In this document: positions 9,215 to 64,000 of the stretch, piece after piece
Position numbering within the stretch: position 1 is the first letter of the stretch
Layout: every line of letters starts with the position of its first letter
DNA from: a candidate division WOR-3 bacterium
GTDB lineage: Bacteria; Hydrothermota; Tepidihabitantia; Tepidihabitantales; Tepidihabitantaceae
Assembly: GCA_965648905.1 (NCBI GenBank)
Contig: CBFGIT010000001.1
Span: forward strand, 1 to 64,000
Length of the DNA: 64,000 nucleotides
Reading direction: 5' to 3'
Program-made: the position numbers and the translations under genes
The notes under the pieces: generated by a model
Databases searched by the model: none
What the model was told of the DNA's origin: nothing
What the model saw: only the letters and a program-made list of their open reading frames with translations

Positions 9215-9307
9215 GCTCGGTACCGTCGCCCGGGTTGCGAATCGGCTTGTGTTCGATATAGTCTCTGCCGTGAAGTACCTGTCGGCCGGTCGCGGGTGAG
9301 CGGCAGT

Positions 9308-12410: not shown

Positions 12411-12589
12411 CGCGCTCCTGCCCGATGCCGGTAGAGAGACGGCTCTGGTCCTTCGATGGTCAAAGGCAATCGGCGGCCGGAAAACACGGCGTGATGATAG
12501 TCGGAAGCAGCCGGAAGTCAACCTGTTGGCAGTCGCCCCTTTCGCCTCTCGCTTCCTGCCCTTTGACTTACCTCGGCTTCAAGGTCGGT

Positions 12590-12617
12590 TTGACTTCGGA
12601 GCCGCGCCGGATATAGT
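12590..12617 (+). promoter_or_regulatory. sigma70-like promoter of the lysS operon
   Basis: TTGACT-N16-TATAGT, ATG 8 nt downstream. Confidence 0.6.
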
Positions 12618-12625
12618 TGACACCA

Positions 12626-14140: not shown

Positions 14141-14162
14141 GCCCCTGGGCCTTGCCCGCGGC

Positions 14163-16579: not shown

Positions 16580-17606
16580 CGGCGTTGGCCGCTGGCTCAC
16601 AGCCTCAGGCCCGGACTCGGACGTCGTCATCTCCTCGCGCATCCGACTGGCCCGCAACCTCGCCGGCGTGCCGTTTGTCCCGCGCGCCAAGAAAACCGAG
16701 CAGGAACAGGTCATCGACGCAGTCCGCTGGGCACTCAACGCCGCCGGACTTGACAACTCAGGCCGGTTCATCGACGACCCGCTCCTCTCAGAAAACCAGG
16801 GCCAGTATCTCCTCGAACGGCACATTATTTCCCCGGACTTCCTCTCCTCCAAAGCGCGACGCGGCCTGTACGTCAACACCGACGAGACCCTCAGTCTCAT
16901 GGTCAACGAAGAAGACCATCTCCGGCTCCAGGTCCTGGCCTCAGGCCTGGCGCTCCTTGACGCGCTCCAAACCGCGCTCAGCCTCGACGACAAACTCGAA
17001 GCCCAGGTTCAGTACGCCTTCTCGCCCGAATTCGGGTTCCTCACCGCGTGCCCGACCAACGTCGGCACCGGCCTGCGGGCCTCGGTCCTGGTCCACCTGC
17101 CCGGCCTGGTCCTGACCCGGGAAATCGACAAAGTCCTGCGCGGCGCACTCCACATCGGACTCGCCGTACGTGGACTCTACGGCGAAGGCAGCGAAACCAG
17201 AGGCAACTTCATCCAGATCTCCAACCAGAAAACGCTGGGCCAGTCCGAACAGGAAATCGTCGACTCGGTCGCCGACATCAGCCGTCAGGTCGTGGATTAC
17301 GAGCGCAAGGCCCGCGAGTACCTGATGAAGAACCTGCGCATCGAGCTTGAAGACAAAGTCTTCCGATCCTTCGCCATTCTCAAGGGCGCGCGCATCCTCT
17401 CATCCGACGAAGCGATCAACCTGATTGCGACCCTGCGGCTCGGAGTCGCGCTGGGAATCGTCAATGAGATTGACCTGGCAGGGGTGAGCCGGTTGCTGAT
17501 TCTGGTGCGGCCGGCCAATCTGCAGGCAATGCTCGGTGAGACTCTTGAGGCTGCCCAGCGTGATGAACGGCGGGCGGCGTTTGTCCGCGAGACCCTGGTG
17601 CGGTGA
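16563..17606 (+). CDS. mcsB: Protein arginine kinase McsB
   Basis: SSRIRLARN, MVNEEDHLR, LTACPTNVGTGLRASV, QISNQ.TLG. Confidence 0.94.
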   Translation: MKLGSNGVGRWLTASGPDSDVVISSRIRLARNLAGVPFVPRAKKTEQEQVIDAVRWALNAAGLDNSGRFIDDPLLSENQGQYLLERHIISPDFLSSKARRGLYVNTDETLSLMVNEEDHLRLQVLASGLALLDALQTALSLDDKLEAQVQYAFSPEFGFLTACPTNVGTGLRASVLVHLPGLVLTREIDKVLRGALHIGLAVRGLYGEGSETRGNFIQISNQKTLGQSEQEIVDSVADISRQVVDYERKAREYLMKNLRIELEDKVFRSFAILKGARILSSDEAINLIATLRLGVALGIVNEIDLAGVSRLLILVRPANLQAMLGETLEAAQRDERRAAFVRETLVR

Positions 17607-49188: not shown

Positions 49189-50568
49189 ATGCGTGTGCTC
49201 GGCTGCCTGGCTCTGGTGGTGTCAGTCGCGTTGAGCGACTTCGAACCCGATTGCCAGATCGATAGCGGCCTGGTCAGTGCCTTCAGTGCCGCGGCTGACC
49301 CAGCCGGCAAGGTCTGGGTCGCGGTTGCCCGTGATAACGGCGAGGTGCGTTTGCTGCGGTCCGCGGACTACTGCCGGACCTGGGATAATGTCTTCCAAGT
49401 TCAGTTCGATTCAGGAGTGGGTCAGCTCCAGGTCCTCCCGGTATTTGGCGAGTCGAGTTTCATCCATGTGTTTGTGCTCAGCCGACAGGGTTCGGGCGAC
49501 CTCTGGCTCTGGCGCGTCCGGCCTGACGATTCGGACTGGGAATTGCTGCCGCTGGCGGTTGGTCCGGACACGGTCGATGACTTCTCGACAACTGCGGACA
49601 AGGACAGCTTCTACTACTTGTACTGTCTCTACGCCAACGAACATCGCACTGGTCAGACCGGCCGATTCGTCCGTTCCACTGATTTCGGCCGGACCTGGGG
49701 CATGGCGACCGACTGGTGGAACTGCTGGGACCCATACATCAGCCATACCCGAGGTTCGACCATCCACTGCGTCTGGCGCTACGCCTTGACCGGAACCGAG
49801 ATTCACTATCAGTCGAACCGGCACTACGGTGCTGCCCGTTACTGGTCGCCCAGGCGCGTGCTGTCGAGCGGTCACGACCGATGCTGGGACCCGGTTGTGG
49901 TTCAGGCCGATACTACCGACGAGTGGGATGCAACCGTCTGGGCGTTCTACACGGTAGGGCGGCGCGACACAAGTCACACCGACATCGGCTACGCAAGAAG
50001 CTGGAACTGCGGCTGGGACTGGACCCCCGGCCGTTCTTTCAGTGACCCCTACCGGGACGAGAGCCCGGCCGATGCAGCGATGGGGCTCGCCGGTGCTCGT
50101 GGTTTCGCGAGCCTGCTCTACGCCTTCGGCGGCGACCGCTACGGTGACACGGTCGTCCTCTGCCGCCGCGTATCCTGCGCTCTCCATCCGACCGTGTGGT
50201 CGGCACCGGTTCAGGTAAGTCAGATACCGGTGGCTCGAGGCCCGGCGTCAGTCAAAGCGCAACTGGTCCACTGCCCAGGAGCACCCGACCCGCTTCCGGT
50301 TGTGTTCTACTGCGGACAGAGTCAGGATGGCCCGCGCGGCGTCTACTGCTCGGCCCCGTGGCTCGAGCGCATGCCGGACCAGTCCGGACGCAGCCCGACT
50401 GCCCTCGGGCGTCGGTCGCCGGTGCTGTCCGGCCGAGTATACGATGTCAACGGCAGACTGGTCGGCCGCGTCCTGCCCGGCGCGCGGCAGTGCGCTCCGG
50501 TGCTGCGGCCGGGTGTCTACATTGTGCAGGACAACACCAGCCGTTCCCGGCTGACAATCGTGCACTGA
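49189..50568 (+). CDS. Secreted Asp-box (BNR) repeat protein with short T9SS-like C-terminus
   Basis: RSADYCRTW, RSTDFGRTW, RSWNCGWDW; YDVNGR...LRPGVYIV. Confidence 0.7.
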   Translation: MRVLGCLALVVSVALSDFEPDCQIDSGLVSAFSAAADPAGKVWVAVARDNGEVRLLRSADYCRTWDNVFQVQFDSGVGQLQVLPVFGESSFIHVFVLSRQGSGDLWLWRVRPDDSDWELLPLAVGPDTVDDFSTTADKDSFYYLYCLYANEHRTGQTGRFVRSTDFGRTWGMATDWWNCWDPYISHTRGSTIHCVWRYALTGTEIHYQSNRHYGAARYWSPRRVLSSGHDRCWDPVVVQADTTDEWDATVWAFYTVGRRDTSHTDIGYARSWNCGWDWTPGRSFSDPYRDESPADAAMGLAGARGFASLLYAFGGDRYGDTVVLCRRVSCALHPTVWSAPVQVSQIPVARGPASVKAQLVHCPGAPDPLPVVFYCGQSQDGPRGVYCSAPWLERMPDQSGRSPTALGRRSPVLSGRVYDVNGRLVGRVLPGARQCAPVLRPGVYIVQDNTSRSRLTIVH

Positions 50569-50576
50569 ACCAGACG

Positions 50577-52388
50577 GTGCGCCCGACCGCGAACCGCCTG
50601 ATTATCCCGCCCATGTCGGCCGAGGAGATGGCGGCGCTCGGCTGGAACCGATGTGATGTAATAATCGTCACCGGTGATGCCTTTGTTGACCACCCGGCAT
50701 TCGGCAGCGCGGTCATTGCCCGTGTGCTTCTCGCCGCCGGATACCGGGTCGGCATCATTGCCCAGCCTGACTGGCGCAAGCCTGATTCGGTCACGCAACT
50801 CGGTCGGCCCCGGCTCTGCTTCGGCGTGACTGCGGGCAACGTCGACTCAATGCTCGCCAATCGCGGCCCATCGTCCGTACCCCGGCGCAAGGACGACTAC
50901 TCGCCTGCTGGCCAGCCTCTCAGACGGCCGGACCGGGCAACCCTGGTCTACTGCAATCTGCTCCGCCAGGCCTACAGAGACGTCCCCCTGGTCATCGGCG
51001 GTATCGAAGCCAGCCTGCGCCGGCTCGCCCATTATGACTACTGGGAAGATGCCGTGCGCCGGTCGATACTGCTCGATGCGCGCGCCGGTATCCTGCTCTA
51101 CGGTATGGCCGAGCGGTCAATGGTCGAGGTCTGCCGGCGCCTGGCCGTTGCCCGGGAAGCCGACCTCACCGGCATCCCTGGTTCGGTCGTTGCTCTGAAG
51201 AACCTGCCGACGAACCTGCGGCACGTGCTGATTCCCTCATATGATGAATGCAGCGCGAACAAGGACCGGTTCAATCAAGCGTTTCAACGCTGGCACCGCG
51301 AGGCCGACAATCCGGCCGGCAGCGCGGTTGTCCAGCCGCACGGTGACCGGCTGGTTGTTCAGCACCCTCCGCCTGCGCCGATGACCGAACGCGAACTGGA
51401 CGCGGTCTACGACCTGCCTTTTACCCGGCAGCCACACCCGAGCTATCATGACCGGATTCCGGCGCTCGAGACGGTCAGGTTCTCAATCACCTCGCACCGG
51501 GGCTGTGTCGGCTCCTGCACATTCTGCTCACTTGCTGCTCATCAGGGCCGCATCATTCAACGCCGCAGTCCTGGCTCGATTGTCCGTGAGGCCGCGGCGA
51601 TTGTGCAGATGCCTGAGTTCAAGGGTCACGTCACCGATGTCGGCGGTCCGACCGCGAACATGTACGCGGCAACCTGCCGACCGATGGCAGCCGGCCGGGT
51701 CTGCCCGGAACGAAGCTGCACCTGGCCCAGACCCTGTCCGAACTTGAGACTCAACCTCAAACAGGAGCTCGCGGTACTTGAGGCGGTGCGGCGCGTGCCC
51801 GGAGTGAAGAAAGTCTCGGTTGGAACTGGTGTCCGTTACGACCTGCTTGCCGACCAGGCCGGAGAAAGCTACCTTGAACAACTGTGCCGCCGGTTCGTGT
51901 CTGGTCAGCTTCGCGTCGCGCCCGAGCACGTCTCGAACCGCGTGCTCGCGGCAATGCGCAAGGCAGACCACGCAAGCTACCAGCGGTTCCGGTCGCAGTT
52001 CAGCCGGCTGAACCAGAAGCTCGGCCAGAAGCAGTACCTGATACCGTACTTCATCTCCGGCCATCCGGGTGCGACCCTCGACGATGCGGTTGAGCTGGCC
52101 GAGTTTCTGGTTCGCATCGAACGGTTCCGTATTCGCCAGGTCCAGCAGTTCACACCCCTGCCGATGACCGCAGCCGCGGCGATGTACCATACCGGCAAAG
52201 ACCCGTTCACTGGTCAGGCGCTGCACGTTGCCGGTGAACGGGAACAACGCCTGCAGCGTCTTCTGCTCCAGTTGCACTCGACCGACGACATCGAACGAGC
52301 AACGCGGGCGCTGCGTGCCTTTGGCCGGCCCGACCTCGCGGCAAGAATCGGTCGGCTGTGGTCAGCCCGCACCCGGCCCCGACATTGA
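50577..52388 (+). CDS. ygiQ: YgiQ family radical SAM protein
   Basis: GDAFVDHPAFG, GNVDSM, RPDRA, GGIEASLRR.AHYDYW, RGCVGSCTFC, DVGGPTANMY, APEH. Confidence 0.93.
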   Translation: MRPTANRLIIPPMSAEEMAALGWNRCDVIIVTGDAFVDHPAFGSAVIARVLLAAGYRVGIIAQPDWRKPDSVTQLGRPRLCFGVTAGNVDSMLANRGPSSVPRRKDDYSPAGQPLRRPDRATLVYCNLLRQAYRDVPLVIGGIEASLRRLAHYDYWEDAVRRSILLDARAGILLYGMAERSMVEVCRRLAVAREADLTGIPGSVVALKNLPTNLRHVLIPSYDECSANKDRFNQAFQRWHREADNPAGSAVVQPHGDRLVVQHPPPAPMTERELDAVYDLPFTRQPHPSYHDRIPALETVRFSITSHRGCVGSCTFCSLAAHQGRIIQRRSPGSIVREAAAIVQMPEFKGHVTDVGGPTANMYAATCRPMAAGRVCPERSCTWPRPCPNLRLNLKQELAVLEAVRRVPGVKKVSVGTGVRYDLLADQAGESYLEQLCRRFVSGQLRVAPEHVSNRVLAAMRKADHASYQRFRSQFSRLNQKLGQKQYLIPYFISGHPGATLDDAVELAEFLVRIERFRIRQVQQFTPLPMTAAAAMYHTGKDPFTGQALHVAGEREQRLQRLLLQLHSTDDIERATRALRAFGRPDLAARIGRLWSARTRPRH

Positions 52389-52420
52389 CAGGCGACCGGT
52401 TTCCAAGGATATTACTGATT

Positions 52421-53050
52421 ATGAAGTCGCGTCAACTCGTATTCCTTGTTCCGGTCCTGTTGGCCTTTGTCGCCTGCGACGAAATGGTGCCGGACGACGG
52501 CCTCACCGACCTGACCGGCGATCCGTTCAACCTGAACAGCAACATCAACGTCGTAGCGATTACCGGCAATGCCGGCTTGAGCCCCAAGGGTCCGTTCACG
52601 CTCGGCATGACCATCTCATCGAAGAGCTCCAATGTCGAGACCGATGTGCTGCCCGCCGGTCTGCTGCTCAAACGGCGCAAGAGAGATACGCAGCACATGC
52701 TGCTCCTCAAGGCACATACCGTGACAACCGGCACCGGCACCAAGACCGAACTGCTCGGAACGTTCTGCTGCAACAAGAACCGGCCCTCGCCCGACGCCGG
52801 CGATACCTTTGACCTCGGGCCGGTCACCAACAACGCCGGACTGAAACAGATCGTCAATCTCGTGCAGGACAAAGACATCTCCGGGGGCACGGCGATGTGG
52901 CTGGTGCAGCGCGCCGTGTACCTGGTGACCGATTCGACCGGCCTGACTCAGGCCTACATCGATTCACTCGAGGCATTACCTGACGAAAACAGGCAGGCGC
53001 GCCGGTACGACGCGGTCGTCAATTCACCCGGGCGTGCATGTTTTCGTTGA
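52421..53050 (+). CDS. Hypothetical lipoprotein
   Basis: ATG at 52421, FVAC lipobox, FCCN..R..P, Q.AV motif. Confidence 0.7.
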   Translation: MKSRQLVFLVPVLLAFVACDEMVPDDGLTDLTGDPFNLNSNINVVAITGNAGLSPKGPFTLGMTISSKSSNVETDVLPAGLLLKRRKRDTQHMLLLKAHTVTTGTGTKTELLGTFCCNKNRPSPDAGDTFDLGPVTNNAGLKQIVNLVQDKDISGGTAMWLVQRAVYLVTDSTGLTQAYIDSLEALPDENRQARRYDAVVNSPGRACFR

Positions 53051-53074
53051 CAAGCGCGCCAGGATTCGTAATCT
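53047..53074 (+). promoter_or_regulatory. sigma70-like promoter
   Basis: TTGACA-N16-TAATCT. Confidence 0.65.
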
Positions 53075-53218
53075 TACCGCGATGGATTCTACGACCCCGA
53101 GCCTGCGGGTCGCATCTGGACCGCTCCTTAGCTCTGACATCACGCACGACAATTGTCCGTTCCGTACGACCGCAGCCGCGAGTGCGGCGCGGTCAAGCTC
53201 TAAACCAAAGGAGGTCTG

Positions 53219-53263
53219 ATGCCTGTAAAGAAGAAGAAGGCCGCGAAGAAAAAGAAGAAGTAG
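53219..53263 (+). CDS. 14-aa lysine-rich micro-ORF MPVKKKKAAKKKKK
   Basis: Perfect SD AAGGAGGT immediately upstream of ATG; own promoter and downstream hairpin. Confidence 0.6.
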   Translation: MPVKKKKAAKKKKK

Positions 53264-53280
53264 GCTGCTCGAAAGCAGAC

Positions 53281-53325
53281 GCCGCTCGCCGGTGTGGCCG
53301 AGGCCACCAAGGCGAGCGGCCGTTT
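53281..53325 (+). terminator. Strong hairpin after the micro-ORF
   Basis: GCCGCTCGCC..GTGGCC-GA-GGCCAC..GGCGAGCGGC then CGTTT. Confidence 0.55.
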
Positions 53326-53369
53326 CTACCATGTCCTGCGCTGCGGGCCTTCTGTCCTGATTCGGTTCC

Positions 53370-53813
53370 GTGAGCCGCATCCTCTGTCTCGACTACGGTG
53401 AACGCCGCACCGGTGTGGCCGTGTCCGACGAAACCGGAACGATTGCCCGGGGTCTGTCGACCATAGCCTGCCGGTCCGATACCGAGCTGCTCAATGCAGT
53501 TCAGCAACTCGTCGCCGACTACGCCATTGCCGAGATTGTCCTCGGACTGCCGCTGAGCCTTTCGGGAAAGCCGAGCGCCCGCTCGGAAAAGGTCAAGGCC
53601 TTTGCCGCACGACTCACTCAGTCAACCGGAATCCGAGTGACGCTGGTCGACGAGCGGCTTACGACCGCGATGGCGAATCGGGCACTTTCAGAAACGCAGC
53701 AGCCGGAGCAGAGTCGCGAGAAGCGTCGTGTACGGTCCAGGCCGCGCGGCGATGCCGACCGGGTCGCTGCCACGATCATTCTCGAAGATTATCTGGCCCG
53801 GATGAGAAGCTAG
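53370..53813 (+). CDS. ruvX: YqgF/RuvX family nuclease
   Basis: LDYG.RR.GVAVSD, VLGLP, DERLTT, D..AA.IILE.YL. Confidence 0.92.
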   Translation: MSRILCLDYGERRTGVAVSDETGTIARGLSTIACRSDTELLNAVQQLVADYAIAEIVLGLPLSLSGKPSARSEKVKAFAARLTQSTGIRVTLVDERLTTAMANRALSETQQPEQSREKRRVRSRPRGDADRVAATIILEDYLARMRS

Positions 53814-54758
53814 ATGAGATTCGTTCGCCTGGTTCAGTTGGCTGCGTTCCTGCTTGCCTGCCGGACAACCAGTCCGCAACCCGGACCCCGGGTCGAAGTT
53901 CGGGTCCGGGCCGGGATGTCCGCAACTGAACTGGCTGACACCCTGCTCGCCCGCGGGGTCATCAGGAACCGGTTTCGGTTCATGACCCTGGCACGCTTCC
54001 ATTCCTATGAATCGCGCATCGTCTCCGGCCGGTACCACCTGCGCCTGGGAACAGATGAAGCGCGGGTCCTGCGACTGTTGAGCCGGGAAGTGCCGGCACT
54101 GGTGATGGTCACTGTTCCTGAGGGACTCACCTGCCGGCAGGTGGCCGAGCTTCTGTCAGAATGCGGCATCTGTCGTGCCGAGCAGTTCCTGGCCGCCTGC
54201 TTCGACACCGTGCTGCTGCGCGAACTCGGCATTCCGGCAACTTCGGCCGAAGGTTTTCTCTTCCCGGAAACCTACCAGTTAAGCACAACTGAGCCGCCGG
54301 CCGACATCATCCGACGGATGGTGCAGCAGTTCTTTGCCGTACTCAAAGACTCATCCGGCCCAGACCTGCTCGCCGCGGTCACGCTCGCCTCGATTGTCGA
54401 GAAGGAAGCGCGGTTGCCCGAAGAGTTCCCGCGGATTGCCGGCGTGTTTGTCAACCGGCTGAGACGCCACCTGCCTCTGCAATCCTGCGCCACGGTTCAG
54501 TATGTGCTGCCTGAGCGCAAGAACGTGCTCGCAGTTGAGGACACCAGGTACCCCTCACCCTACAACACCTATCTCCACGTCGGACTGCCGCCCGGCCCAA
54601 TCTGCAATCCGGGGCGGCGTGCGCTGGCCGCAGCCAAGAATCCCGAGCGTCACGACTACGTCTTCTTTGTTGCCCGCGGAGACGGCAGTCACGTCTTCTC
54701 CCGCACTGCGGCCGAGCACGACGCCGCCTGTGCCCGTGTGCGCCGCGGTCGCTCTTAG
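53814..54758 (+). CDS. mltG: Endolytic transglycosylase MltG
   Basis: T.PEG, EGFLFPETY, ASIVEKE, VFVNRL, SPYNTY...GLPPGPICNPG. Confidence 0.93.
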   Translation: MRFVRLVQLAAFLLACRTTSPQPGPRVEVRVRAGMSATELADTLLARGVIRNRFRFMTLARFHSYESRIVSGRYHLRLGTDEARVLRLLSREVPALVMVTVPEGLTCRQVAELLSECGICRAEQFLAACFDTVLLRELGIPATSAEGFLFPETYQLSTTEPPADIIRRMVQQFFAVLKDSSGPDLLAAVTLASIVEKEARLPEEFPRIAGVFVNRLRRHLPLQSCATVQYVLPERKNVLAVEDTRYPSPYNTYLHVGLPPGPICNPGRRALAAAKNPERHDYVFFVARGDGSHVFSRTAAEHDAACARVRRGRS

Positions 54759-54778
54759 GTCGTTGTCGACTTCTGGGC

Positions 54779-54806
54779 TTGACCAACTGCGAGTTGGGCC
54801 TAATAT
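54779..54806 (+). promoter_or_regulatory. sigma70-like promoter
   Basis: TTGACC-N16-TAATAT, GTG 6 nt downstream. Confidence 0.6.
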
Positions 54807-54812
54807 GGAGCA

Positions 54813-56153
54813 GTGAAGACCATCCGCGACGCGGTCCACGGTGACCTTGATTTCACTGACGACGAGCTTCAGGTCATCAACACCGCCTGCTTCCAGCGCC
54901 TGCGCGGCATCAAACAGCTCGGCGCCGCGTATCTTGTCTACCCGAGCGCAACCCATACCCGGTTCGAGCACAGCCTGGGTACGTGCGGTGTCGCCCGACA
55001 GACAATCGCCCATATCCGGCGCAACTGCGGGGCACGGTCGGTGAGCGCGGACGACGAACGGCTCATCGCCATCTACGCCCTGGTCCACGACCTGACCCAC
55101 ATCCCGTTCGGGCATACCATCGAAGACGAACGTCGGGTGTTTCCCCGTCACGACCAGAACACGGCGCGGATTGACTACTTCCTTACCCGGACCGATACCG
55201 GCCGCGCTCTAGCAAAACTCGGCTTGGCACGACCGGTCGAAGAGCTGATGAAACGCAAGCGGCTGGAGAGGGGTGGGCCGACGTTCCACTACGACATTGT
55301 GTCGGGCACAATCTGTGCAGACCTGCTCGACTACCTCGAGCGCGACTCCTACTTCACCGGGCTCTCTCAGAGGTACGATGAGCGGCTCTACAAGTACTTC
55401 GTCATTGAACAGGGCGGTCTGGCAATCAACCTGATTCGTTCCGGATTGTTTCGCACGGACGGACTTTCCGAGACCCTGAACGTACTCCGCATGCGCTACG
55501 TCCTCTCTGAGCGCTGCTACTACCACCCGGCCAAGAACGCCGCCTCGGCCATGGTCTCAAAGGCGCTCGAGCTGTGCGTTGACTCGGGCAAGATGCGGCT
55601 TTCCGAACGCTCGTTCTACGATGTCGGCGACGAAGGGTTCCTGCGCATCCTCCAGGCCGGGCCTGGCCCGGCAAAGTATCTGGTTGATGCCTTTCTTGCC
55701 CGGCGGCTGTACAAGAAAGTCTATCTTGTGTCGCGCCGGAGCATCCCTTCAACCGAGCGGTTCGCTGCTTATCATCTCGACCCGGGCAAGCGGGCCGAAG
55801 CCGAGGCCTGGCTGGCGCGTAAGCTCAAGGTGCCGTTCCGCTCTGTGGTCGTCTACTGCCCCTCCTCCACGATGCAATTGCGCGAGGCGAATGCGCAATT
55901 CAAGCTCGCTCCGGGCGAACCGCCGCGCCGACTTGAAGGCAATCAGGAAATCGAGAACCTCAAGCGCCAGCAGGAGAATCTCTGGAAGTTCTTTGTTTTC
56001 CTCGACCCGGCGCACGCGGACAGATCCGCAACTGCTGGTCAACTGTGTGAAGAGTATTTCGGGCAGGCCAACGAACTGCCTGAGCTGGGCCTGGCTCAAC
56101 CCTGTGGCCCAACCGATCCGTTACGCAAGAACAGAACCGAAACGGAGGTCTAG
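54813..56153 (+). CDS. HD-domain phosphohydrolase (COG1078/dNTPase-like)
   Basis: D.VHG, FQRLR.IKQLG, HTRFEHSLG, HD..H.PFGH, D.LDYL.RD, Y.H. Confidence 0.88.
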   Translation: MKTIRDAVHGDLDFTDDELQVINTACFQRLRGIKQLGAAYLVYPSATHTRFEHSLGTCGVARQTIAHIRRNCGARSVSADDERLIAIYALVHDLTHIPFGHTIEDERRVFPRHDQNTARIDYFLTRTDTGRALAKLGLARPVEELMKRKRLERGGPTFHYDIVSGTICADLLDYLERDSYFTGLSQRYDERLYKYFVIEQGGLAINLIRSGLFRTDGLSETLNVLRMRYVLSERCYYHPAKNAASAMVSKALELCVDSGKMRLSERSFYDVGDEGFLRILQAGPGPAKYLVDAFLARRLYKKVYLVSRRSIPSTERFAAYHLDPGKRAEAEAWLARKLKVPFRSVVVYCPSSTMQLREANAQFKLAPGEPPRRLEGNQEIENLKRQQENLWKFFVFLDPAHADRSATAGQLCEEYFGQANELPELGLAQPCGPTDPLRKNRTETEV

Positions 56154-56539
56154 TGCACTGTCGAAGTTGTGGTAAAGAGGTCGTTGACACGGCCGAGGTC
56201 TGCGTCGGCTGCGGTAGCAAGCCCAATGCCGGCACCAAGTACTGCCAGAACTGCGGGGTCGAAACCGATCCCAGGGCCGAAGTCTGCGTCAAGTGCGGGG
56301 TCAGACTCGCGACCGCGGCGGCAGTTCAGAAAGAAGGCAAAGACTGGCTCGTGGCCCTGCTGCTTTCCATCTTCCTGGGTAAGCTGGGTGTGGACCGGTT
56401 CTATCTCGGCTACATTGGTCTTGGAATCCTCAAGCTCGTCACCGTGGGCGGCTGCGGCATCTGGTGGCTTGTTGACCTGATTCTCATCGCCTCCCATAAG
56501 CTGAAGGATTCAGACGGGCGAGAACTGGTCAGGAAGTAG
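56153..56539 (+). CDS. Zinc-ribbon plus TM2 domain protein
   Basis: Four CxxCG; LLSIFLG.LG.DRFYLG...GILKL.T.GG.GIW. Confidence 0.88.
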   Translation: MHCRSCGKEVVDTAEVCVGCGSKPNAGTKYCQNCGVETDPRAEVCVKCGVRLATAAAVQKEGKDWLVALLLSIFLGKLGVDRFYLGYIGLGILKLVTVGGCGIWWLVDLILIASHKLKDSDGRELVRK

Positions 56540-56552
56540 CAACCGCCGGAGA

Positions 56553-56885
56553 GTGTCAAGAACGACAAACGGTTCCAGGCCCGGAAGACTTGTTCTCGGC
56601 CTGGTCCTGCTTGCCGTTCTTGCCGCCCTGGCTCTGGTTCCGGTTGAGCTGGTCGAGCGCCTGCCTTCTCTCTGCCTGAACCGCCGCCTGTTCGGATTCT
56701 GCCCAGGCTGCGGTACAGTGCGTGCGCTCTCGCACCTGCTCCACGGCGACGTAGCCGGAGCACTCAGATACAACCTCAACTGCCTGATTGTCGCGCCGCT
56801 CCTGGTCGGACTCGCGGCTTGGCATGTCGTGACTGCCATGAAGCCGCGCGACCCGAGAAGAAAGGCTCAAATACCCGCAGCTTGA
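56553..56885 (+). CDS. DUF2752 family membrane protein
   Basis: C.....G..CPGCG..RA...LLHGD...A..YN. Confidence 0.8.
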   Translation: MSRTTNGSRPGRLVLGLVLLAVLAALALVPVELVERLPSLCLNRRLFGFCPGCGTVRALSHLLHGDVAGALRYNLNCLIVAPLLVGLAAWHVVTAMKPRDPRRKAQIPAA

Positions 56886-56977
56886 GTTCGGCCAGTGCGC
56901 CTTGGTCGCTCGCGCCCGGACATGACCATTGACCGACCGCCATCCGGCTTTGTTTCTGCTCGCGTCATCTGGTCCAA

Positions 56978-57245
56978 GGTGCAGCGATAGCCCGCGTCAG
57001 CACTGAAACCGAAGCCGCGACGCACGCCAAGACAGCGACCGGTCCAAACAGGCAAGAACCGGCACGCACAACTGCCTGAGCAACTGCTTGGGCAGCGGGC
57101 TCGGCGTTTGCTTCTGCCACCGCGCGCGATGCCGCTGGCGACAACGCCCGAAGTAGCTGTCCGACTTGCACTTGCGGCATCACGCCGCGCACGACCCAGA
57201 AGAGCGCCTGCCCAACTTCACTTCTTTTCATGCTAGCAGTCATGG
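56978..57245. repeat. Degenerate 12-bp-periodic tract upstream of the capsid-like gene
   Basis: 12-mers from 57062: gcacgcacaact gcctgagcaact gcttgggcagcg ggctcggcgttt gcttctgccacc ...; consensus about RCNYSNRCNRNY. Confidence 0.55.
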
Positions 57246-57448
57246 CGTGGGGGACGGCCTCCCCCCTGTCCACCTCCACGGTAGTATGAAGAAACAGCGG
57301 CAAATCCGGCCCACAGAACCGTATAACACAGTGAAGACACCGGGACACGACCGGAAATGCGCGGGACTGTGCCTTGGTCTGGTGCGTCCAACGCACTGGC
57401 TGTCCCGCAAGTTCCGCACTGACCTGACCCGACTGGAGAAGTAACATC

Positions 57449-57829
57449 GTGAACAACAAAGACAGGCCGTTTCCCTCACCCGCAGCCGAACGCGCGGTGA
57501 ACCGCTATGCCGCAAAGCTTGAACGCGGACTCGCCGACACACGCAGCGACCGGGACCTGGCCGCTCAGACCGGGCGCTATCGCGCCGCCGCCGAACACGC
57601 CGACCTGCGCACCGTGCAACTGCGCCGGGTCCTGTGGGACATGGGCGTGCATTCCACGCTCTACTGCGTCTACCGTGCCTTCACTCTGCACGTCGACAGA
57701 CAGGTCCGCAACTACGAACACGAGACCCTGCGAATCCTGGTCAACCACGCCATCGAGCGCTGGACCCGCCGCGGCTGCGACCCGGTTGTACTGAAGGCAA
57801 TCTGCGTCCGCGTCTTCGCGTTGGGATGA
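57449..57829 (+). CDS. Alpha-helical protein resembling SIRV2-type (Adnaviria) major capsid protein
   Basis: GGAG at 57435, GTG start; VL...GV......Y..F.L.V.R.......L...VN....W...G.DP.VL.AI pattern; CDS likely, homology judged by eye. Confidence 0.6.
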   Translation: MNNKDRPFPSPAAERAVNRYAAKLERGLADTRSDRDLAAQTGRYRAAAEHADLRTVQLRRVLWDMGVHSTLYCVYRAFTLHVDRQVRNYEHETLRILVNHAIERWTRRGCDPVVLKAICVRVFALG

Positions 57830-57921
57830 GTCGAGGCTTCAGTACCGCCGAGCTCGGGTCTGAGACTTGACTGGCCACTGGCGCTTGTTCCTTGGTCATT
57901 CCCCGCATTCTGCCCGTTGAC

Positions 57922-57998
57922 CTGCCTCCTCGCCTCTCGCTCTCTGCCATCTTGACCTTTGATACTTACCCTTTGCCCTTTGACTTATCTCCTCGCCC
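57922..57998. repeat. Pyrimidine-rich degenerate heptamer array (about 11 units)
   Basis: ctgcctc ctcgcct ctcgctc tctgcca tcttgac ctttgat acttacc ctttgcc ctttgac ttatctc ctcgccc. Confidence 0.65.
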
Positions 57999-58041
57999 TT
58001 CCACGCCGGGTTCTCTGCCCAGAGCGGATTCAGGAGCCCCG

Positions 58042-58290
58042 GCCCAGACCGCAGCCGCAGTGACTGGCGCAGTGCCGGGCGCAGCGACAAGCGAAGCTCA
58101 AGCGGAACCAGCGGCCCCAACTTCTTCTCCGGCCAGCGCACCGATTAGGGCAACCCTGACCGTCTGGGTAGCCATGCAGGGAATGGTCACGCCGGCCCGC
58201 GTGAAGTCGGCGCGCTCGGTTAGAACGTCTGGTGGCGTTCAAACGCAGACGGAAGAGAGGACTCACGTAGCTGAAACTGCCGCCGCGCCC
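58042..58290. repeat. Degenerate 12-bp-periodic tract downstream of the capsid-like gene
   Basis: gcccagaccgca gccgcagtgact ggcgcagtgccg ggcgcagcgaca agcgaagctcaa gcggaaccagcg gccccaacttct; decays after about 58190. Confidence 0.5.
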
Positions 58291-58323
58291 CAGCTTCCTT
58301 CACTCAGTCCGGGCGCTGACGGG

Positions 58324-58349
58324 TCGGGGCGGCCCGAAGGCCGCCCCGA
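58324..58349 (-). terminator. 11-bp perfect hairpin with cUUCGg loop downstream of the S8 gene
   Basis: Minus strand TCGGGGCGGCC-TTCG-GGCCGCCCCGA; no clear U-tract. Confidence 0.6.
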
Positions 58350-58376
58350 ATGAATCGGCGTCCGTGTCGGTTCGAG

Positions 58377-61300
58377 CTAGCGCTGGAGCACGAGTTTCTG
58401 ACTGACTGAGTAAACGCCTGCGTTCAGACGCACCGTGTATACGCCGGCACTCAAGCCACGCAGGTCGAGCGGCAATGACGAAGTCCGAATGCCGAATGAC
58501 GAGCGGAGGACGCGGCGGCCTGAGGCGTCGTAGATGCTGATGCTCGGGACACGATCCGAAATGCCGGGCACTTGGGTCATGTCCCAGCACAGCGTGGCGA
58601 AGCCGGAGCGGAGCGGGTTGGGCGTGATGGTGAACCCGGCCGGTCGCCTATCGAACGCCGAGGCCAGTACGCCAGACCGGGCTGCCCGGCCCGTGGCCAG
58701 GGGCAGTACGGTTGAGCCCGGTGTGTACATCCAGAACTCCTGGGTCTTGTTGCCCTTGAGCGCAAAGCACATGCCGGATCGGCCTGATACGTAGGGCGTG
58801 ATGTCGCCGCCGAGCTTGACCTTCTTCTTCTTGCCGGTCGAGCCAAGCTCGGGCATCGCTTCCTGTTCCTGCCAGGAGTCGGCGGCAGCCAGGTATTTCC
58901 ACAGCTCGGTTGTGTTACCGCCTTTGAGCGCGTAGACGCCGTCGTGCAACCACGCACCGGCCGCGCCGTCTTTCGACTTCTTGGACTTGCCCAGTCGGCC
59001 GATGAGCGGCATGCCCGGCCGATTCGGACCCCAGGCATCGTCGATGATGTCATAGGCGAAGAGGACGTGATACTTGGCCTGGTGCACAAACACGGTCCGG
59101 TCGTCGTCATAGACCGCAAACGAGCCCGGGCCGAGCTTAAGTACGGGCGCGGGAATTGAGGCAAGTGGAGTCCAAGAGTCACTCACCGGGTCATAGCGGT
59201 AGAACTCGTTCTTGTCGCCCTTGACAAGGTAGACCTTGCCCTGGGCATACGCGACATCAGCGCCGCCTTTGACCCGCCGGTTTGAGGTGCCGAGCGGGAC
59301 CGGCTCAAGGGCTGACCAGGAGTCGTGTGCCGCATCGTACCGGTAGAAGCCCTGGGTGTTGTTGCCTTTGACCATGTAGACCAGGCCGTTACCGTCAGCG
59401 CAGGCATTGGCGCCTTTGCCGACCAACTTGTTCTCAACTCCGGCCGGAATCGGGCGGCGTGCGCTCCAGGAGTCGCCGACCGGGTCATAGGCGTAGAAGT
59501 CCGCGGTCTTGCCCCCGGCCGCAGCGTAGACCTTCATCGTTGCCGGCTCACCGACAACAAACGCACCAGCCTTGGCCGCAAGGGGCAGGCGGGCACGTTC
59601 AAGCCAGGGCGGCGGCGGCGGCCCGGTGATGAAGCTGAACTGACCGGTGAGCGTATCGTTGGCCGGGTTACCGTCGTAGGCAACACTGGTCGAGCAACGA
59701 GTCGTGTAGCTGCCTGGATCGTGTGGTTTGGGCAGAGTATCAAAGCCTACCATCACCGAACTGCCCGGAGCCAGACTGGTGACCGTGCGGCTGCTTGAGT
59801 AGATGACCGAGTTGGCCTGGTCCAGAATCCGGAAGAACACGGTCGGCGCAGCGGCAAAGTTGCCCTGGTTGCGCACGGTTGCTGCCGGCACAACGACTGC
59901 GCCGGTATCGACACTGCCGACCGGAGAGTTGATTGCGCTCACGCCCACGTCCACCCGGCCGACGGTGAATGCCTGAGCTAGCGAATCGTTCGCCGGCACT
60001 TGATCACCGCTCATCCTTGAGCGGCAGACCGCAGTGTACGATCCGGTCCAGGCATCCCAGTTCGGGAAGGTCGCGGTTGTATCGACACCCGAGGGCAGAC
60101 CCAGAGGCAGGTCCAGGCTCTCAAGATACGCGGGCGATGAGTTGATGGCGAAGAACAGGCGGACCGGGTCGCGCTGCGTGCCGTAGTTGTGCACGACCGC
60201 GGCTGGCATGGTCGGCCCGGGCGGCACCATGCCTGAGGGCGACACAATCTGCGTTACACCGACATCACGCACCGCAACATAGACCGTGCCAAGCACCGTG
60301 TCGTTCGCGGCTACCATGTCTGCGGCGAGCATGGTCGTGCATCTTGTTGCTAGGGCACCGCGCTGGAGCGCGGTCCAGGACGCAAAGTTCACCGCCTGCG
60401 ATGCACCGGCAGCCAGATTGGTCACGGTCTGGGTGTTCGAGTAGCCAGAGCCGATGTTGAGCCGGACATTGAACGTCGCCGCCTGAGTCCCGTTGTTCCG
60501 GACTGTGGCCTGGGGCGCAATCACTGCGCCCGAATCGACCGTGCCGGTCGGAGCATTGATCGATACTGCCTCGGCGTCGAGCACGCGGACAAACACGTTC
60601 CCGGTCGCGATGTTGTTAGCCGGAACCATGTCACCAGTCAGCATCGTGGTGCATCTTGTCGCCAGAGTGCCGCGCTGGAGCGCGGTCCAGGACGCAAAGT
60701 TCACCGCCTGTGACGCACCGGCGGCCAGATTGGTCACGGTCTGGGTGTTCGAGTAGCCGGAGCCGATGTCGAACCGGACATTGAATGTCGCCGCCTGAGT
60801 CCCGTTGTTCCGGACTGTGGCCTGGGGCGCAATCACTGCGCCCGAATCGACCGTGCCGGTCGGCACATTGATTGATACTGCTTCAGCATCGAGCACGCGC
60901 ACAAGAACTGACCCGGTGTCACGGTCATTAGCCGGGGCAATGTCACCCGGGAGTTCGGTCGAGCATCGCACCACCTGGATACCGCGCGGCCAGTTCGAGC
61001 CGGCCAAGAAGGTCACATAGCGTGCCGTGCCCGGCGCATGAGCGGTGATGGCTGCGATCTGGTTGTAGCTCGACCCGATTCTCATCCGCACCTGGTAATC
61101 AACCGTGCTCGAGCCGTAGTTGTACACTGTGCAGGCCGGAACCACCGACTGGGTCGAGTCGATCGTGCCGGTTGGTACTATGATGCGGCGCACGCCGACG
61201 TCGCCGACCTGGCGGCTGACGTCACCGGTAATGGTCCAGGCAAAGGGCTGGCGCGCGCTCGTTGCCACTTGGAAACCGTAAACCCGGATCGTCCAGACCC

Positions 61301-63308
61301 CGGTCGCCGGTGAGTTGACGCGGACGCACTCCTCAACGTTCAGCGTATCCCAGACAGTCGGGTTCGGCGTTGACTGGCCCCCAGAATACTGGTTGCCGCG
61401 ATAGACTGTTCCGCCCGGAGCAATCACTTCGAGGTTCAGGTTGTTGACCAGGGTGCGCGACGCGCTGGGCGCGGCTGCAGTGTCGGTCCAGGCCAGGGCA
61501 ACTCGCAGCGGAATCGAGGAGTTCACCACGAACTGCTCTTCCTTGTACTGGCCGGTGCTCACGCCCGAGGTGTCGTCTTTGATAATCAGCTTGCGCGTAT
61601 CACCAGCAAAATAGAGCACCGAGTCAGCATCAATCCGGCCCCAGCCGATATCGAAGCTAGGCACGACGTACGACCCGATGTTCGGGTCAGCCGAAGCAAC
61701 GGCCATCGAACGCAGCAGGGCCGCGCTGATATACGAGATGCTGTCAGCCGGGTTCGCAGTTCCGGTCGGATAGTAGCCCTCACGCAGATAGCAGCGCATC
61801 AAACCGACCGTGCCGTTGACTGCTGGCGTTGCCATTGAAGTTCCGGACATCTGCTGGTAGGTATTGGTCCCGGACGACGTCGCCGAGTACAGATTCACCC
61901 CTGGCGCGCAGACCGTCGGCTTCAGCCGATTGTCCGCGGTCGGCCCGCGGCTGGAAAAACTGGCAATGGCGTTCGACGAAGTGCCGTTCTGGGTCGCACC
62001 GACCGTAATCACGTTCTTGGCAATACCGGGATTGCGGATCCGCCGCGTGCTCGTCTCGTTGCCGGCAGCCATGATATTGAGGAAATCCTTGTATACCCAG
62101 GAGTAGTTGTCGGTCGAGGCGTCCATCAGCAGATAGGTTCCGCTCGAGTTGGACCAGCCCCAACTTCCCGAGTGCTGACGAATCGGCCGCAGCGAGTCAG
62201 GCAGACCCCGGCCAAGATAGACCGAGTCCCAGAGCGGAGTCAGGTCATCGCTGATGACGAAGGTCCCGGAGCTGTTGGTCAGGTCAACAAAGTAGAGGCG
62301 TCCCTTGATTGACATGCCATCGTAGTAGCTGGTCCCGCCCGTGACCGAGTCGTCGCCCGCCACCGTGCCGTTGACGTGGCTGCCGTGGTAGGGCGTTTCA
62401 CCCTGTTGTGCGCCCTGATACAGCTTGAACGCAACGACTTTGCGGTGCGTCGGCCATATCCCGGGCGCAGTCACCGACAGGTTCGGGTCACGGAAAAGGT
62501 TATGGCCAAGGTTCAGTCCGGTGTCGGTCGTTGATAGAATCACCCGCTGGCCGCGCACACCTTTCGCCCAGACCTTGCGCGCCGTCATGCTCGTGTCCGG
62601 CGGCGCAGTTGACTGCCAGCCGGTCTGCACGACCCACTGGCAGTTGTTGTTACACAGCTCAGGCTCGGTCCAGAGCTGAACCCAGATAACCTCCTGCAGC
62701 CGGGCAATCGCCGGTATTGCCGAGGCCGGAACCGTCACCGTTATCGACGTGCAGAACTCAGACTCGACCACATCGGCATACGCCGCACCCTGGTCAGCCA
62801 GCACCTGAAGAATGGGTCGGTGCTCCTCGCCCGGGGTCACGACGATGACCAGTTTGACGCTGCCCGAAGCACTAAGCAGTACGTCCTGTAACTTGTACGC
62901 CGGCTGAAACAGACCGACCCAGTGCACCATCGGCAATGCCTGGACTGCGGCCTTCTGGGCCGGTTCGAGCTTGGCCAGAACCGCGTAGCTCGGCAGGTAG
63001 CCGAAAGGCCGGACATCAATTCGCCTGAGCTCCTGATACCACTCCGGCCTTATCGGGCCGTTGAACTGGATGATGTGGTAGGCAGGGCCGGGCTGGTGTT
63101 CGGAAAGCGCCAGCTCCGGCGGGATTGCAGACACGCCGGTTCGGGTATCGACCACGAACCCGTTGGAAAAACTGACTTCGTTCAGCTCATTTCCTGCCAC
63201 CGGGTCAAAGTGCCGCGCCGGGCCCATGCTGTAGTGCGATGACGGTCGGGCAGAACCGTTGCTGGCCAGCGCGCAAAGAACGGACAGGCAAACGACGAGC
63301 GCTTTCAT
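58377..63308 (-). CDS. S8 subtilisin-like peptidase with CARDB repeats, Kelch-like propeller and T9SS-type C-terminal domain
   Basis: GGAGG RBS; DTG, HGSHV.GT, AAGN, SGTSMATP; NNLNLEV; ITPNP...YDASGR...LSAGVY. Confidence 0.92.
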   Translation of the reverse strand: MKALVVCLSVLCALASNGSARPSSHYSMGPARHFDPVAGNELNEVSFSNGFVVDTRTGVSAIPPELALSEHQPGPAYHIIQFNGPIRPEWYQELRRIDVRPFGYLPSYAVLAKLEPAQKAAVQALPMVHWVGLFQPAYKLQDVLLSASGSVKLVIVVTPGEEHRPILQVLADQGAAYADVVESEFCTSITVTVPASAIPAIARLQEVIWVQLWTEPELCNNNCQWVVQTGWQSTAPPDTSMTARKVWAKGVRGQRVILSTTDTGLNLGHNLFRDPNLSVTAPGIWPTHRKVVAFKLYQGAQQGETPYHGSHVNGTVAGDDSVTGGTSYYDGMSIKGRLYFVDLTNSSGTFVISDDLTPLWDSVYLGRGLPDSLRPIRQHSGSWGWSNSSGTYLLMDASTDNYSWVYKDFLNIMAAGNETSTRRIRNPGIAKNVITVGATQNGTSSNAIASFSSRGPTADNRLKPTVCAPGVNLYSATSSGTNTYQQMSGTSMATPAVNGTVGLMRCYLREGYYPTGTANPADSISYISAALLRSMAVASADPNIGSYVVPSFDIGWGRIDADSVLYFAGDTRKLIIKDDTSGVSTGQYKEEQFVVNSSIPLRVALAWTDTAAAPSASRTLVNNLNLEVIAPGGTVYRGNQYSGGQSTPNPTVWDTLNVEECVRVNSPATGVWTIRVYGFQVATSARQPFAWTITGDVSRQVGDVGVRRIIVPTGTIDSTQSVVPACTVYNYGSSTVDYQVRMRIGSSYNQIAAITAHAPGTARYVTFLAGSNWPRGIQVVRCSTELPGDIAPANDRDTGSVLVRVLDAEAVSINVPTGTVDSGAVIAPQATVRNNGTQAATFNVRFDIGSGYSNTQTVTNLAAGASQAVNFASWTALQRGTLATRCTTMLTGDMVPANNIATGNVFVRVLDAEAVSINAPTGTVDSGAVIAPQATVRNNGTQAATFNVRLNIGSGYSNTQTVTNLAAGASQAVNFASWTALQRGALATRCTTMLAADMVAANDTVLGTVYVAVRDVGVTQIVSPSGMVPPGPTMPAAVVHNYGTQRDPVRLFFAINSSPAYLESLDLPLGLPSGVDTTATFPNWDAWTGSYTAVCRSRMSGDQVPANDSLAQAFTVGRVDVGVSAINSPVGSVDTGAVVVPAATVRNQGNFAAAPTVFFRILDQANSVIYSSSRTVTSLAPGSSVMVGFDTLPKPHDPGSYTTRCSTSVAYDGNPANDTLTGQFSFITGPPPPPWLERARLPLAAKAGAFVVGEPATMKVYAAAGGKTADFYAYDPVGDSWSARRPIPAGVENKLVGKGANACADGNGLVYMVKGNNTQGFYRYDAAHDSWSALEPVPLGTSNRRVKGGADVAYAQGKVYLVKGDKNEFYRYDPVSDSWTPLASIPAPVLKLGPGSFAVYDDDRTVFVHQAKYHVLFAYDIIDDAWGPNRPGMPLIGRLGKSKKSKDGAAGAWLHDGVYALKGGNTTELWKYLAAADSWQEQEAMPELGSTGKKKKVKLGGDITPYVSGRSGMCFALKGNKTQEFWMYTPGSTVLPLATGRAARSGVLASAFDRRPAGFTITPNPLRSGFATLCWDMTQVPGISDRVPSISIYDASGRRVLRSSFGIRTSSLPLDLRGLSAGVYTVRLNAGVYSVSQKLVLQR
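60280..60903 (-). repeat. 312-bp (104-aa) near-identical tandem CARDB duplication
   Basis: gtgcatcttgt at 60337 and 60649; long identical DNA runs. Confidence 0.9.
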
Positions 63309-63346
63309 GGTGCCTCCTGGATTATTGCTCTGGACCGGGTGAAGTA

Positions 63347-63375
63347 ATCCTACCGGGCATACCATGAAGTGTCAA
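63347..63375 (-). promoter_or_regulatory. sigma70-like promoter of the S8 gene
   Basis: TTGACA-N17-TAGGAT. Confidence 0.65.
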
Positions 63376-63458
63376 AATCGGCCGGGCCGATGTTGAACCT
63401 CTGCCGGACTTGGCTAGAATCGCTTTCTATCCGCCGAACCTGCCCGAAAGGACCACTC

Positions 63459-64000
63459 ATGCGACCCGTACTGCGCCTGTTATCCGACAGCCTGGTTGAA
63501 CAGGTCCTGGCCGAAGCCCGGACTCTCCTCTGCGGTCTGGGAATGATCGTGCACAACGACGCGGTGTTGCGACTGCTTGGTGAGCACGGTGCCGAAGTTG
63601 ACCTTGCCCGCCACCATGTTCGGTTCAACAACGACATTATCGACTATGGCCTCAAATCCGCTCCCCGCTCATTCAAGCTGTTCGACCTGCTCGGCAACCA
63701 GACCCATGAGTTTGCTGGCGACAACGTCTATTTCACCCCTGGCTCGGCCGCCTTGAATATCCTTGACTCCAGCACCGGCCAGATGCGGCGACCGAAGACT
63801 CCGGACTATGTCGAGTACGTTAAGCTCGTAAGCGGGCTTGACCACCTTGCGGCTCAGAGTACGGCGCTGATTCCTGATGACGTGCCGGAGCGCATCTCGG
63901 ACAGCTATCGGCTGTATCTGAGCCTGCTCTTTGGCGAGAAGCCGGTTGTCACCGGCTGCTTCACTATCGAGTCGTTCGCGGTGATGCGTGACATGCAGGT
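63459..64000 (+). CDS. mttB: Trimethylamine methyltransferase (MttB) family protein, 3'-truncated by window
   Basis: My translation: MRPVLRLLSD...L..LG..V.N...L..HGA.VD....VRF......LKSAP..F.L...G......G....FTPGS.A..ILD...G..R; open to the window end. Confidence 0.8.
   Translation, partial: MRPVLRLLSDSLVEQVLAEARTLLCGLGMIVHNDAVLRLLGEHGAEVDLARHHVRFNNDIIDYGLKSAPRSFKLFDLLGNQTHEFAGDNVYFTPGSAALNILDSSTGQMRRPKTPDYVEYVKLVSGLDHLAAQSTALIPDDVPERISDSYRLYLSLLFGEKPVVTGCFTIESFAVMRDMQ

Follow-up and report, generated by a model that had tools for sequence, protein, structure and literature searches.

An order-wide protein family of candidate division WOR-3 bacteria with probable homology to the capsid proteins of Adnaviria

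The window studied here is a 64,000-nucleotide stretch of the genome of a candidate division WOR-3 bacterium, and our subject is one of its genes, at positions 57449..57829 on the forward strand, together with the family to which its product (P0001) belongs. Sequence profiles and structure models make it very probable that this family is homologous to the SIRV2-fold capsid proteins, a homology that we accept because the database-corrected sequence evidence and the fold ranking agree. The virus realm Adnaviria takes its definition from this capsid protein. Beyond homology as such, we judge it reasonably probable that we are dealing with a cellular, non-virion bacterial family that shares ancestry with the adnaviral capsid protein and coats DNA as dimers.

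No report of bacterial homologues of the adnaviral capsid protein was found in the open-access literature searched, where PF12193 (Sulf_coat_C) led only to a late-2025 preprint on the capsid tree. A 2024 review (PMC10848233) presents the adnaviral capsid protein as unique and the realm as unconnected to viruses of bacteria. The WOR-3 family would supply a real outgroup for the adnaviral capsid tree, would make the origin of Adnaviria testable (i.e. cellular ancestor versus capture) and would offer soluble, non-viral proteins for asking whether A-form DNA wrapping exists outside virions.

Homology to the adnaviral capsid proteins

The gene runs from a GTG start to a TGA stop codon, encodes 126 amino acids and is preceded by a putative ribosome-binding site read from the sequence (GGAG, 57435..57438, forward strand, 10 nt 5' of the start). 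The start codon was fixed because the aligned homologues begin there, the start residue being common to all three close homologues (90, 61 and 60 % identity; named 'candidate division WOR-3 bacterium' where a name is given). GC content at codon positions 1, 2 and 3 is 0.69, 0.47 and 0.80, the same pattern as in the neighbouring genes. P0001 has an isoelectric point (pI) of 10.0 and a net charge of +7.9. The AlphaFold2 model built from the family alignment described below (predicted local distance difference test, pLDDT, 93.5; predicted template-modelling score, pTM, 0.81) has five helices and no strand, and the basic, all-helical reading frame with a ribosome-binding site recognised in the first-pass annotation, which had been made from the letters alone, is thus recovered. 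Helices 11-26 and 37-64 of the model form an N-terminal helical arm and helices 69-88, 91-107 and 112-123 a C-terminal helical bundle. The predicted protein thereby shows the adnaviral arrangement of a long N-terminal helical arm followed by a C-terminal bundle. Across the family alignment, the arm carries conserved arginines and an invariant-like tyrosine.

Relatives were retrieved by a hidden Markov model (HMM) search of 1.84 billion representatives, which returned 201 sequences at E <= 1e-3, and 89 of them were aligned as the family alignment. The capsid reference alignment was composed of seven real GenBank proteins, i.e. those of SIRV2 (ORF134, AJ344259), SMR1, MRV1, SSRV1 and ARV1 and both proteins of AFV1. 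Comparison of the two alignments with hhalign gave a probability of 96.3 % (E 1.5e-9) over 117 columns, family positions 11-127 being aligned with capsid positions 6-136, N-terminal arm included. An alignment of 13 sequences of the S-type subfamily (see below) gave 94.7 % (E 6e-8) over 109 columns with the same seven capsid proteins, and its motif R-W-K-A-K-Y-N falls in register with K-W-Q-A-K-F-N of SIRV2. Compared with SIRV2 alone, hhalign gave 46.6 % (E 2e-4) and aligned query positions 42-119 with SIRV2 43-122, which reproduces, with the real ORF134, the alignment proposed in the first-pass annotation. As judged from these profiles, the homology is near full length and takes in the C-terminal helical bundle as well as the arm.

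When the family profile was run with hmmsearch against 177,635 PDB sequences, the top match was the SSRV1 capsid protein (E 4.7e-5), and eight of the 15 rows were adnaviral capsid chains, including AFV1 ORF132 and ORF140 (E 0.006-0.015), SFV1 (0.008) and SIRV2 twice (0.016). At E <= 1, Pfam Sulf_coat_C matches 30 of the 89 members (best E 2.3e-5); MCP_C (PF21660) matches 3/89. The Sulf_coat_C model also finds three sub-threshold places in the genome to which the window belongs (hereafter the own genome; best 24 bits) and none in 14 control genomes. For P0001 itself, only two Pfam rows are obtained at E <= 1, Sulf_coat_C and DUF7115, and single-sequence searches of PHROGs and ESM Atlas gave nothing useful. 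The median pI of the family is 9.7, with 83 of the 89 members above 8; that of rudiviral capsid proteins is 9.8-10.2.

The family model was further aligned to each of 48,161 PDB representatives, and seven adnaviral capsid proteins occupied ranks 1-7: 3f2e (13.5; 76; 1.2), 6wq0 (12.7; 98), 3fbz (12.3), 3fbl (12.2), 5w7g_B (10.5; 113), 6d5f (9.2) and 6wq2 (7.8). The same seven chains stood at the top for the model of a fused family member, and Foldseek likewise placed the same adnaviral proteins first. The SIRV2/Adnaviria fold to which the first-pass annotation had assigned the gene is therefore upheld by profile evidence and by predicted-structure ranking. In both the profile and the Foldseek comparison that it had proposed, adnaviral capsid proteins came first, with weak E-values for Foldseek (see below). 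DUF732 (PF05305), a bacterial domain of three helices detected by structure only, is given in that late-2025 preprint (December) as the closest non-viral structural neighbour, and roots its tree of SIRV2-like capsid proteins. It is only a partial structural analogue and does not figure in the list of 25 Pfam families matched by the 89 members. In contrast to DUF732, the likeness of the WOR-3 family to the capsid proteins is full length and reaches the level of sequence profiles.

Distribution and gene organisation of the family

The deeper family profile was searched against 272 genomes of the phylum (E <= 1e-5, with at most 15 matches scored per genome). Sixty-five genomes were positive, i.e. 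the own genome and 64 of the 65 other genomes of a single WOR-3 order. All five families of this order are represented (f1 43/43, f2 10/10, f3 5/6, f4 2/2 and f5 4/4), and the only genome of the order without a match measures 0.6 Mb at 68 % completeness; all sufficiently complete ones carry the family. None of the 207 phylum genomes outside the order was positive with this profile and threshold. Such order-wide presence argues for vertical inheritance. Values of dN/dS of 0.36-0.45 likewise favour cellular status. Positive genomes carry from 2 to at least 15 copies, for a total of at least 538 matches. In the own genome, the deeper HMM detects 11 family open reading frames (ORFs) at E < 1e-8 and four weaker ones; a first profile search had given five places. 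The survey of homologues and neighbourhoods suggested in the first-pass annotation has thus uncovered an order-wide chromosomal family. The word 'solo' used there for the gene holds at the locus and fails for the genome, with its at least 11 family ORFs, and the partner genes, fusions, sigma cassettes and defence neighbourhood described below had been missed.

Occurrence beyond the phylum was probed weakly, by a narrow-pattern scan of genome contigs, whose single match, a short one to Bifidobacterium (29 residues at 48 %), was taken as chance, and by a word-indexed search, which returned 581 clusters, all 'hypothetical', none with a Pfam domain and with WOR-3 as the sole organism name. A separate observation concerns P0048, a protein of 4,132 amino acids in which five separate stretches match positions 50-94 of the family profile (E 1.5e-15).

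Gene organisation was studied on 60 loci from relatives and four own-genome regions, in which ORFs were called with a codon model and clustered, and a quick maximum-likelihood tree of 72 members was inferred, midpoint-rooted and with support from the Shimodaira-Hasegawa-like approximate likelihood-ratio test (SH-aLRT) only. Three of the four own-genome regions were also taken as loci, and other own-genome regions served separate checks. This tree separates three groups, A-type (36 rows), B-type (14 rows) and S-type (17 rows). A-type genes usually lie just 3' of a divergent paralogue, here called A0, whose matches to the family HMM have E-values between 1e-8 and 1e-11. A0 and A genes overlap by 4 nt in five loci (L028, L029, L033, L043 and L081), and 19 fused two-domain forms were found, all with the same domain order. 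We considered A0-A pairs as type II toxin-antitoxin systems and rejected this, since both genes match the same family HMM and also occur fused; no toxin or antitoxin match was found for the pairs in Pfam, NCBIfam or PADLOC. S-type genes are stand-alone, encode about 122 amino acids and have long upstream gaps. Across metagenomes, their mean column identity is 85 %.

B-type genes always follow a sigma-70-family gene, and the B clade is tied to the sigma factor in the tree. The cassette sigma factor passes NCBIfam TIGR02937 (sigma70-ECF superfamily, where ECF stands for extracytoplasmic function; 70 versus 42.9 bits). The recurring cassette order is [A0]-A-sigma-small protein-B, and in 16 of 62 loci the same sigma factor is found on the same strand at a distance of at most 1.5 kb. 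Three sigma cassettes occur in the own genome, on C10, on C52 and at C1:182-184 kb. The C10 cassette (locus L087, C10:65290-81622; positions 7989-10670, reverse strand) consists of a family gene of 192 amino acids, an ECF-type sigma factor of 222, an HPr-like protein of 152, a protein of 110 and a family gene of 128 amino acids; the HPr-like protein, which has a long basic tail, stands between the sigma gene and the B-type gene. A DrmD-like SNF2 helicase divergently adjoins this cassette. In the C52 cassette, at the contig start (L103, C52:1-6000), a 342-amino-acid protein that matches the candidate defence model PDC-M19A (E 4e-14) lies between sigma and family gene, and an Eco57I-type restriction-methylase is found 3' of the cassette. 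Elsewhere, a conserved protein of about 90 amino acids is encoded between sigma and B-type gene (L041 6938-7213, reverse strand; L066 7527-7793, forward strand; and five more loci). Its motif resembles E-L-D...G..P-D-I-E.(Y/F)-L-A..P-G...L-R-P, and it has no Pfam, NCBIfam or PADLOC match.

Proposed function and competing explanations

The family is most likely cellular, dimeric and DNA-coating. Its homology, basic charge and arm arginines would be in line with the binding and coating of double-stranded DNA. We propose that the protein would act as a dimer, i.e. a homodimer for the window protein and a heterodimer where a partner is encoded, that the basic N-terminal helices would lie along the DNA and that many dimers would coat it as a nucleoprotein filament, possibly for protection, compaction or silencing. 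The 4-nt overlaps of A0-A genes and the 19 fusions in one order give indirect support for a dimeric unit, with a fused model of pTM 0.48. Its association with an alternative sigma factor and with defence islands suggests that the family would be used conditionally, to meet stress or counter foreign DNA, and not as a housekeeping component of the nucleoid. As to ancestry, the family may derive from capture from a virus or from a cellular ancestor of the capsid protein, either being admissible. The 'domesticated capsid' of the first-pass annotation therefore agrees with our results as regards cellular status (order-wide, multi-copy, with chromosomal neighbours) and goes beyond them as regards direction and a nucleoid or DNA-protecting role. 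A bolder version, possible and still doubtful, would make the family the first relative of the Adnaviria capsid protein to come from cells. Its order-wide homo- or heterodimers would coat chromosomal or foreign DNA in a virus-like filament, possibly A-form, and would be switched on by an ECF-type sigma factor of their own; the family would then be either a cellular stock that gave the realm its hallmark protein or an ancient cross-domain capture.

The adnaviral capsid proteins compared (SIRV2 and SSRV1 of the Rudiviridae, AFV1 ORF132 and ORF140, SFV1, SIFV and PFV2) likewise have about 125-135 amino acids, a pI of about 10, an N-terminal helical arm with a C-terminal bundle, a basic-aromatic N-terminal motif and 109-117 homologous columns. 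They also occur as single genes, as adjacent divergent pairs (AFV1, whose ORF140 and ORF132 adjoin each other in the GenBank record) and, as reported in one preprint (bioRxiv 10.1101/2025.08.23.671958), as fused genes in some archaeal rod-shaped viruses. Unlike them, the WOR-3 family resides on bacterial chromosomes, order-wide and in scattered copies with no virus genes nearby, is linked to an ECF-type sigma factor and to defence islands, and scores below the Pfam cut-off. Adnaviral proteins wrap A-form DNA and build virions, whereas the WOR-3 family is known here from genes and predicted models.

Among cellular proteins, the alpha/beta-type small acid-soluble spore proteins (SASPs) of Bacillus and Clostridium are a multi-gene family of small DNA-coating proteins encoded by dispersed monocistronic genes, controlled by an alternative sigma factor and imposing an A-like form on DNA. 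The analogy is one of lifestyle only, with no relation in sequence or fold: there is no SASP among the P0001 Pfam rows and no known sporulation context, and no shared promoter that might reveal sigma control was found upstream of 80 family genes. The filament-forming nucleoid proteins and xenogeneic silencers H-NS, Lsr2, MvaT and Rok and the Bdellovibrio bacterial histone are small oligomerising DNA-coating proteins whose paralogues often reside in genomic islands. The folds of these proteins are unrelated to that of the WOR-3 family, of which 2/89 members have chance-level Histone_HNS matches (best E 0.037).

Several results weigh against a cellular, DNA-coating relative of the capsid proteins. 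P0001 alone gives Sulf_coat_C as its top Pfam row at E 0.21, with 12.1 bits versus a cut-off of 25.2, and no member among the 89 was shown to pass the curated Sulf_coat_C cut-off. The Foldseek E-values are weak (0.3-0.6 for PDB, 0.07 for BFVD), and AlphaFold2 was trained on some of these capsid structures. The kinship of A0 to the family rests on the HMM E-values given above. The fold list of the fused form contains no adnaviral row for its A0 (N-terminal) domain, and its model, with a pTM of 0.48, predicts no defined two-domain arrangement. The own genome has two HU genes and hence no nucleoid gap to fill, and replacement of HU by the family was rejected on the same ground. A search for a shared promoter motif 5' of family genes (5-mer and 4-mer dyads, 80 genes versus 614 controls) found none, GC-rich pairs being enriched at most 3.7-fold. 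Finally, there are limits to the association with defence genes. PADLOC (E <= 1e-8) matched 25 of 114 genes lying within 3 kb of a family gene (a random 114 of 265, with matches from 21 loci), 17/130 genes at least 5 kb away in the same loci and 6/124 in eight 20-kb stretches chosen arbitrarily from the own genome. By Fisher's test, near genes exceed this baseline (odds ratio, OR, 5.5, p 8.6e-5), as do far genes (OR 3.0, p 0.028). Near versus far within the same loci gives p 0.089, a single genome supplies the baseline, independence does not hold for related loci and PADLOC models include generic domains.

A chance or convergent likeness of an unrelated small helical bundle would accord with the single-sequence scores, which are not significant (the Pfam E just cited, and no adnaviral chain in the PDB sequence search with P0001 alone or with a four-sequence profile), with Foldseek E-values of 0.07 or above and with four-helix bundles being common. 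It is nevertheless highly improbable in view of the database-corrected match of the deeper profile and its eight adnaviral rows out of 15, of two independent subfamily profiles that reach 94.7-96.3 % and share the arm and the motif, and of seven adnaviral chains heading the ranking for two different models. Nor do we give much weight to the idea that the genes belong to an Adnaviria-related virus of bacteria, integrated or degraded. This second reading, which we regard as very unlikely, would account for the likeness to a viral hallmark protein, for tandem paralogous genes resembling AFV1 ORF140/ORF132, for fused forms resembling the fused capsid genes of archaeal rod-shaped viruses reported in the preprint cited above and for the many copies near contig ends (among the 60 loci from relatives, at least 15 are no more than 2 kb away from one). 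The last point is explained by near-identical paralogues, which break short-read assemblies. Against a virus also stand the 64 positive genomes among the 65 others of the order, each with 2 to at least 15 scattered copies, and cellular neighbours that change with the locus (thiolase, enoyl-CoA hydratase, pseudouridine synthase, TsaE, Mfd, glycosyltransferases and type IX secretion system (T9SS) cargo). Housekeeping and defence genes surround the family genes, no virus gene occurs among them, and the window flanks lack an integrase or replication gene. Scans of IMG/VR with two pattern sets (one of them S-type) gave no relative. The DNA common to copies within the genome spans 459-1,486 bp only, on which ground a large mobile element was rejected. 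The 'trace of an unknown bacterial adnavirus-like element' put forward as an option in the first-pass annotation is accordingly not supported, given the lack of viral neighbours and of IMG/VR matches and the 0.46-1.5 kb size of the duplicated units.

Two further explanations keep the family cellular. As a defence or anti-mobile-element factor, it would coat or silence incoming DNA, i.e. by the same DNA-coating mechanism with another purpose, or would disturb the assembly of an unknown filamentous virus. PADLOC enrichment near family genes relative to the own-genome baseline would support such a role, and the near matches include type I, II and IIG restriction-modification and the models PglX, DrmD, MkoA, AbiU, Old/GajA and HmaC. 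The own-genome island at C1:182-192 kb (see below), the Eco57I-type enzyme and PDC-M19A-like gene on C52, the variable copy number, the non-syntenic position of the window copy within its genus and a dN/dS of 0.36-0.45 point the same way. We nonetheless find this purpose unlikely: the family itself matches no PADLOC model, the neighbours of the window copy are non-defence genes, bar one weak dGTPase-like match (6e-10) on an HD protein, and the 85 % identity of the S-type is unlike that of arms-race genes. Moreover, the enrichment is drawn from 114 of 265 near genes in loci of related genomes that are not independent, and defence islands gather unrelated variable genes too. The other explanation takes the protein as a partner of the ECF-type sigma factor, i.e. 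an anti-sigma factor or co-regulator working through protein contacts, with no coating of DNA. Anti-sigma domains of the ECF type form small helical bundles, and their genes stand beside that of the sigma factor. The constant position of B-type genes after a sigma gene that passes TIGR02937, the tied clade and the 16 of 62 loci with a close sigma gene on the same strand would suit such a role. It appears decidedly unlikely, since 46 of the 62 loci and the window gene have no nearby sigma gene, the strong basic charge and arm arginines suit nucleic-acid binding better, and it is with DNA-wrapping capsid proteins that the family shares specific sequence homology. No anti-sigma chain occurs among the 50 best fold rows either, an absence from that list that does not exclude one.

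The island just mentioned is a variable region between two family genes of the own genome (C1:182-192 kb; positions 8722-17262 of locus L086, C1:174472-194471). It contains HicB/HicA, an ECF-type sigma factor, a NucS-like protein, DUF5131, an NYN nuclease and an MkoA-like AAA_11/AAA_12 helicase with an MTES_1575 nuclease domain.

The window locus

The window gene is a lineage-specific, partner-less A-type paralogue, as its clade-mates have an A0 gene, the window copy has none and synteny of the gene is not kept in G182, a genome of the same genus. Its nearest clade (SH-aLRT 99) comprises the own-genome copy at C1:191953-192303 and a G182 copy, both with an A0 partner. The gene is under purifying selection, which is not strong: dN/dS is 0.36-0.42 relative to its two nearest relatives, with dS of about 1 and thus near saturation.

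Upstream lies a gene for a DUF2752 protein (56553..56885, forward strand; Pfam E 9.9e-13), preceded by genes for RuvX, YceG, an HD-domain protein and a TM2/zinc-ribbon protein. The HD protein (54813-56153, forward strand, 1.3 kb 5' of the family gene) combines HD and HD_assoc_2 domains and is the one with the weak PADLOC dGTPase match. Downstream, on the reverse strand and thus convergent, a gene at 58377..63365 encodes a secreted S8 protease of 1,662 amino acids with CARDB, Kelch and T9SS sorting domains (Pfam). These Pfam assignments agree with the setting described in the first-pass annotation, between DUF2752 and an S8 protease, and no integrase, replication or virus gene was found in the flanks, nor any sigma gene near this copy. 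A consensus scan near the gene found no sigma-70 promoter and no convincing terminator; Rfam gave no family over 56500-58500, where one P24 fragment was taken as chance.

The 563-nt gap 5' of the gene is mostly filled by a copy of a dispersed repeat (57002..57390, forward strand, broadly 56930-57400), which is 76 % identical by blastn to C2:134742-135117. The repeat measures about 270-460 nt, and nhmmer found 11 further matches, ten in the own genome (two on C2, three on C11 and one each on C3, C13, C8, C1 at 149.6 kb and C49) and one in G182. Its core, GGGGAC-GGCCTC(C/T)CC, is conserved, and a short hairpin is possible. Translated, it does not look like a protein, and the window copy has an in-frame stop; no Rfam family was found for it. 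The G182 match (L026 7207-7506) lies immediately 5' of an A0-A pair. Compared with that locus, the window is shorter by about 395 nt, which is roughly the size of A0 and corresponds to the missing partner.

In G182, the YceG-HD-TM2 block is kept with contig breaks on both sides, and a gene other than the family gene comes after DUF2752. The counterpart, by synteny, of window positions 50000-64000 is spread over at least three G182 contigs (C25, C64 and C138), whose breaks fall exactly around the position of the family gene and inside the repeat-rich S8 protease. Short dispersed matches (37-181 nt) also link window positions 57930-58195 to C4, C12, C28, C52, C55 and C1 at 91 kb; some of them lie near contig ends, and one stands beside a weak family fragment on C55.

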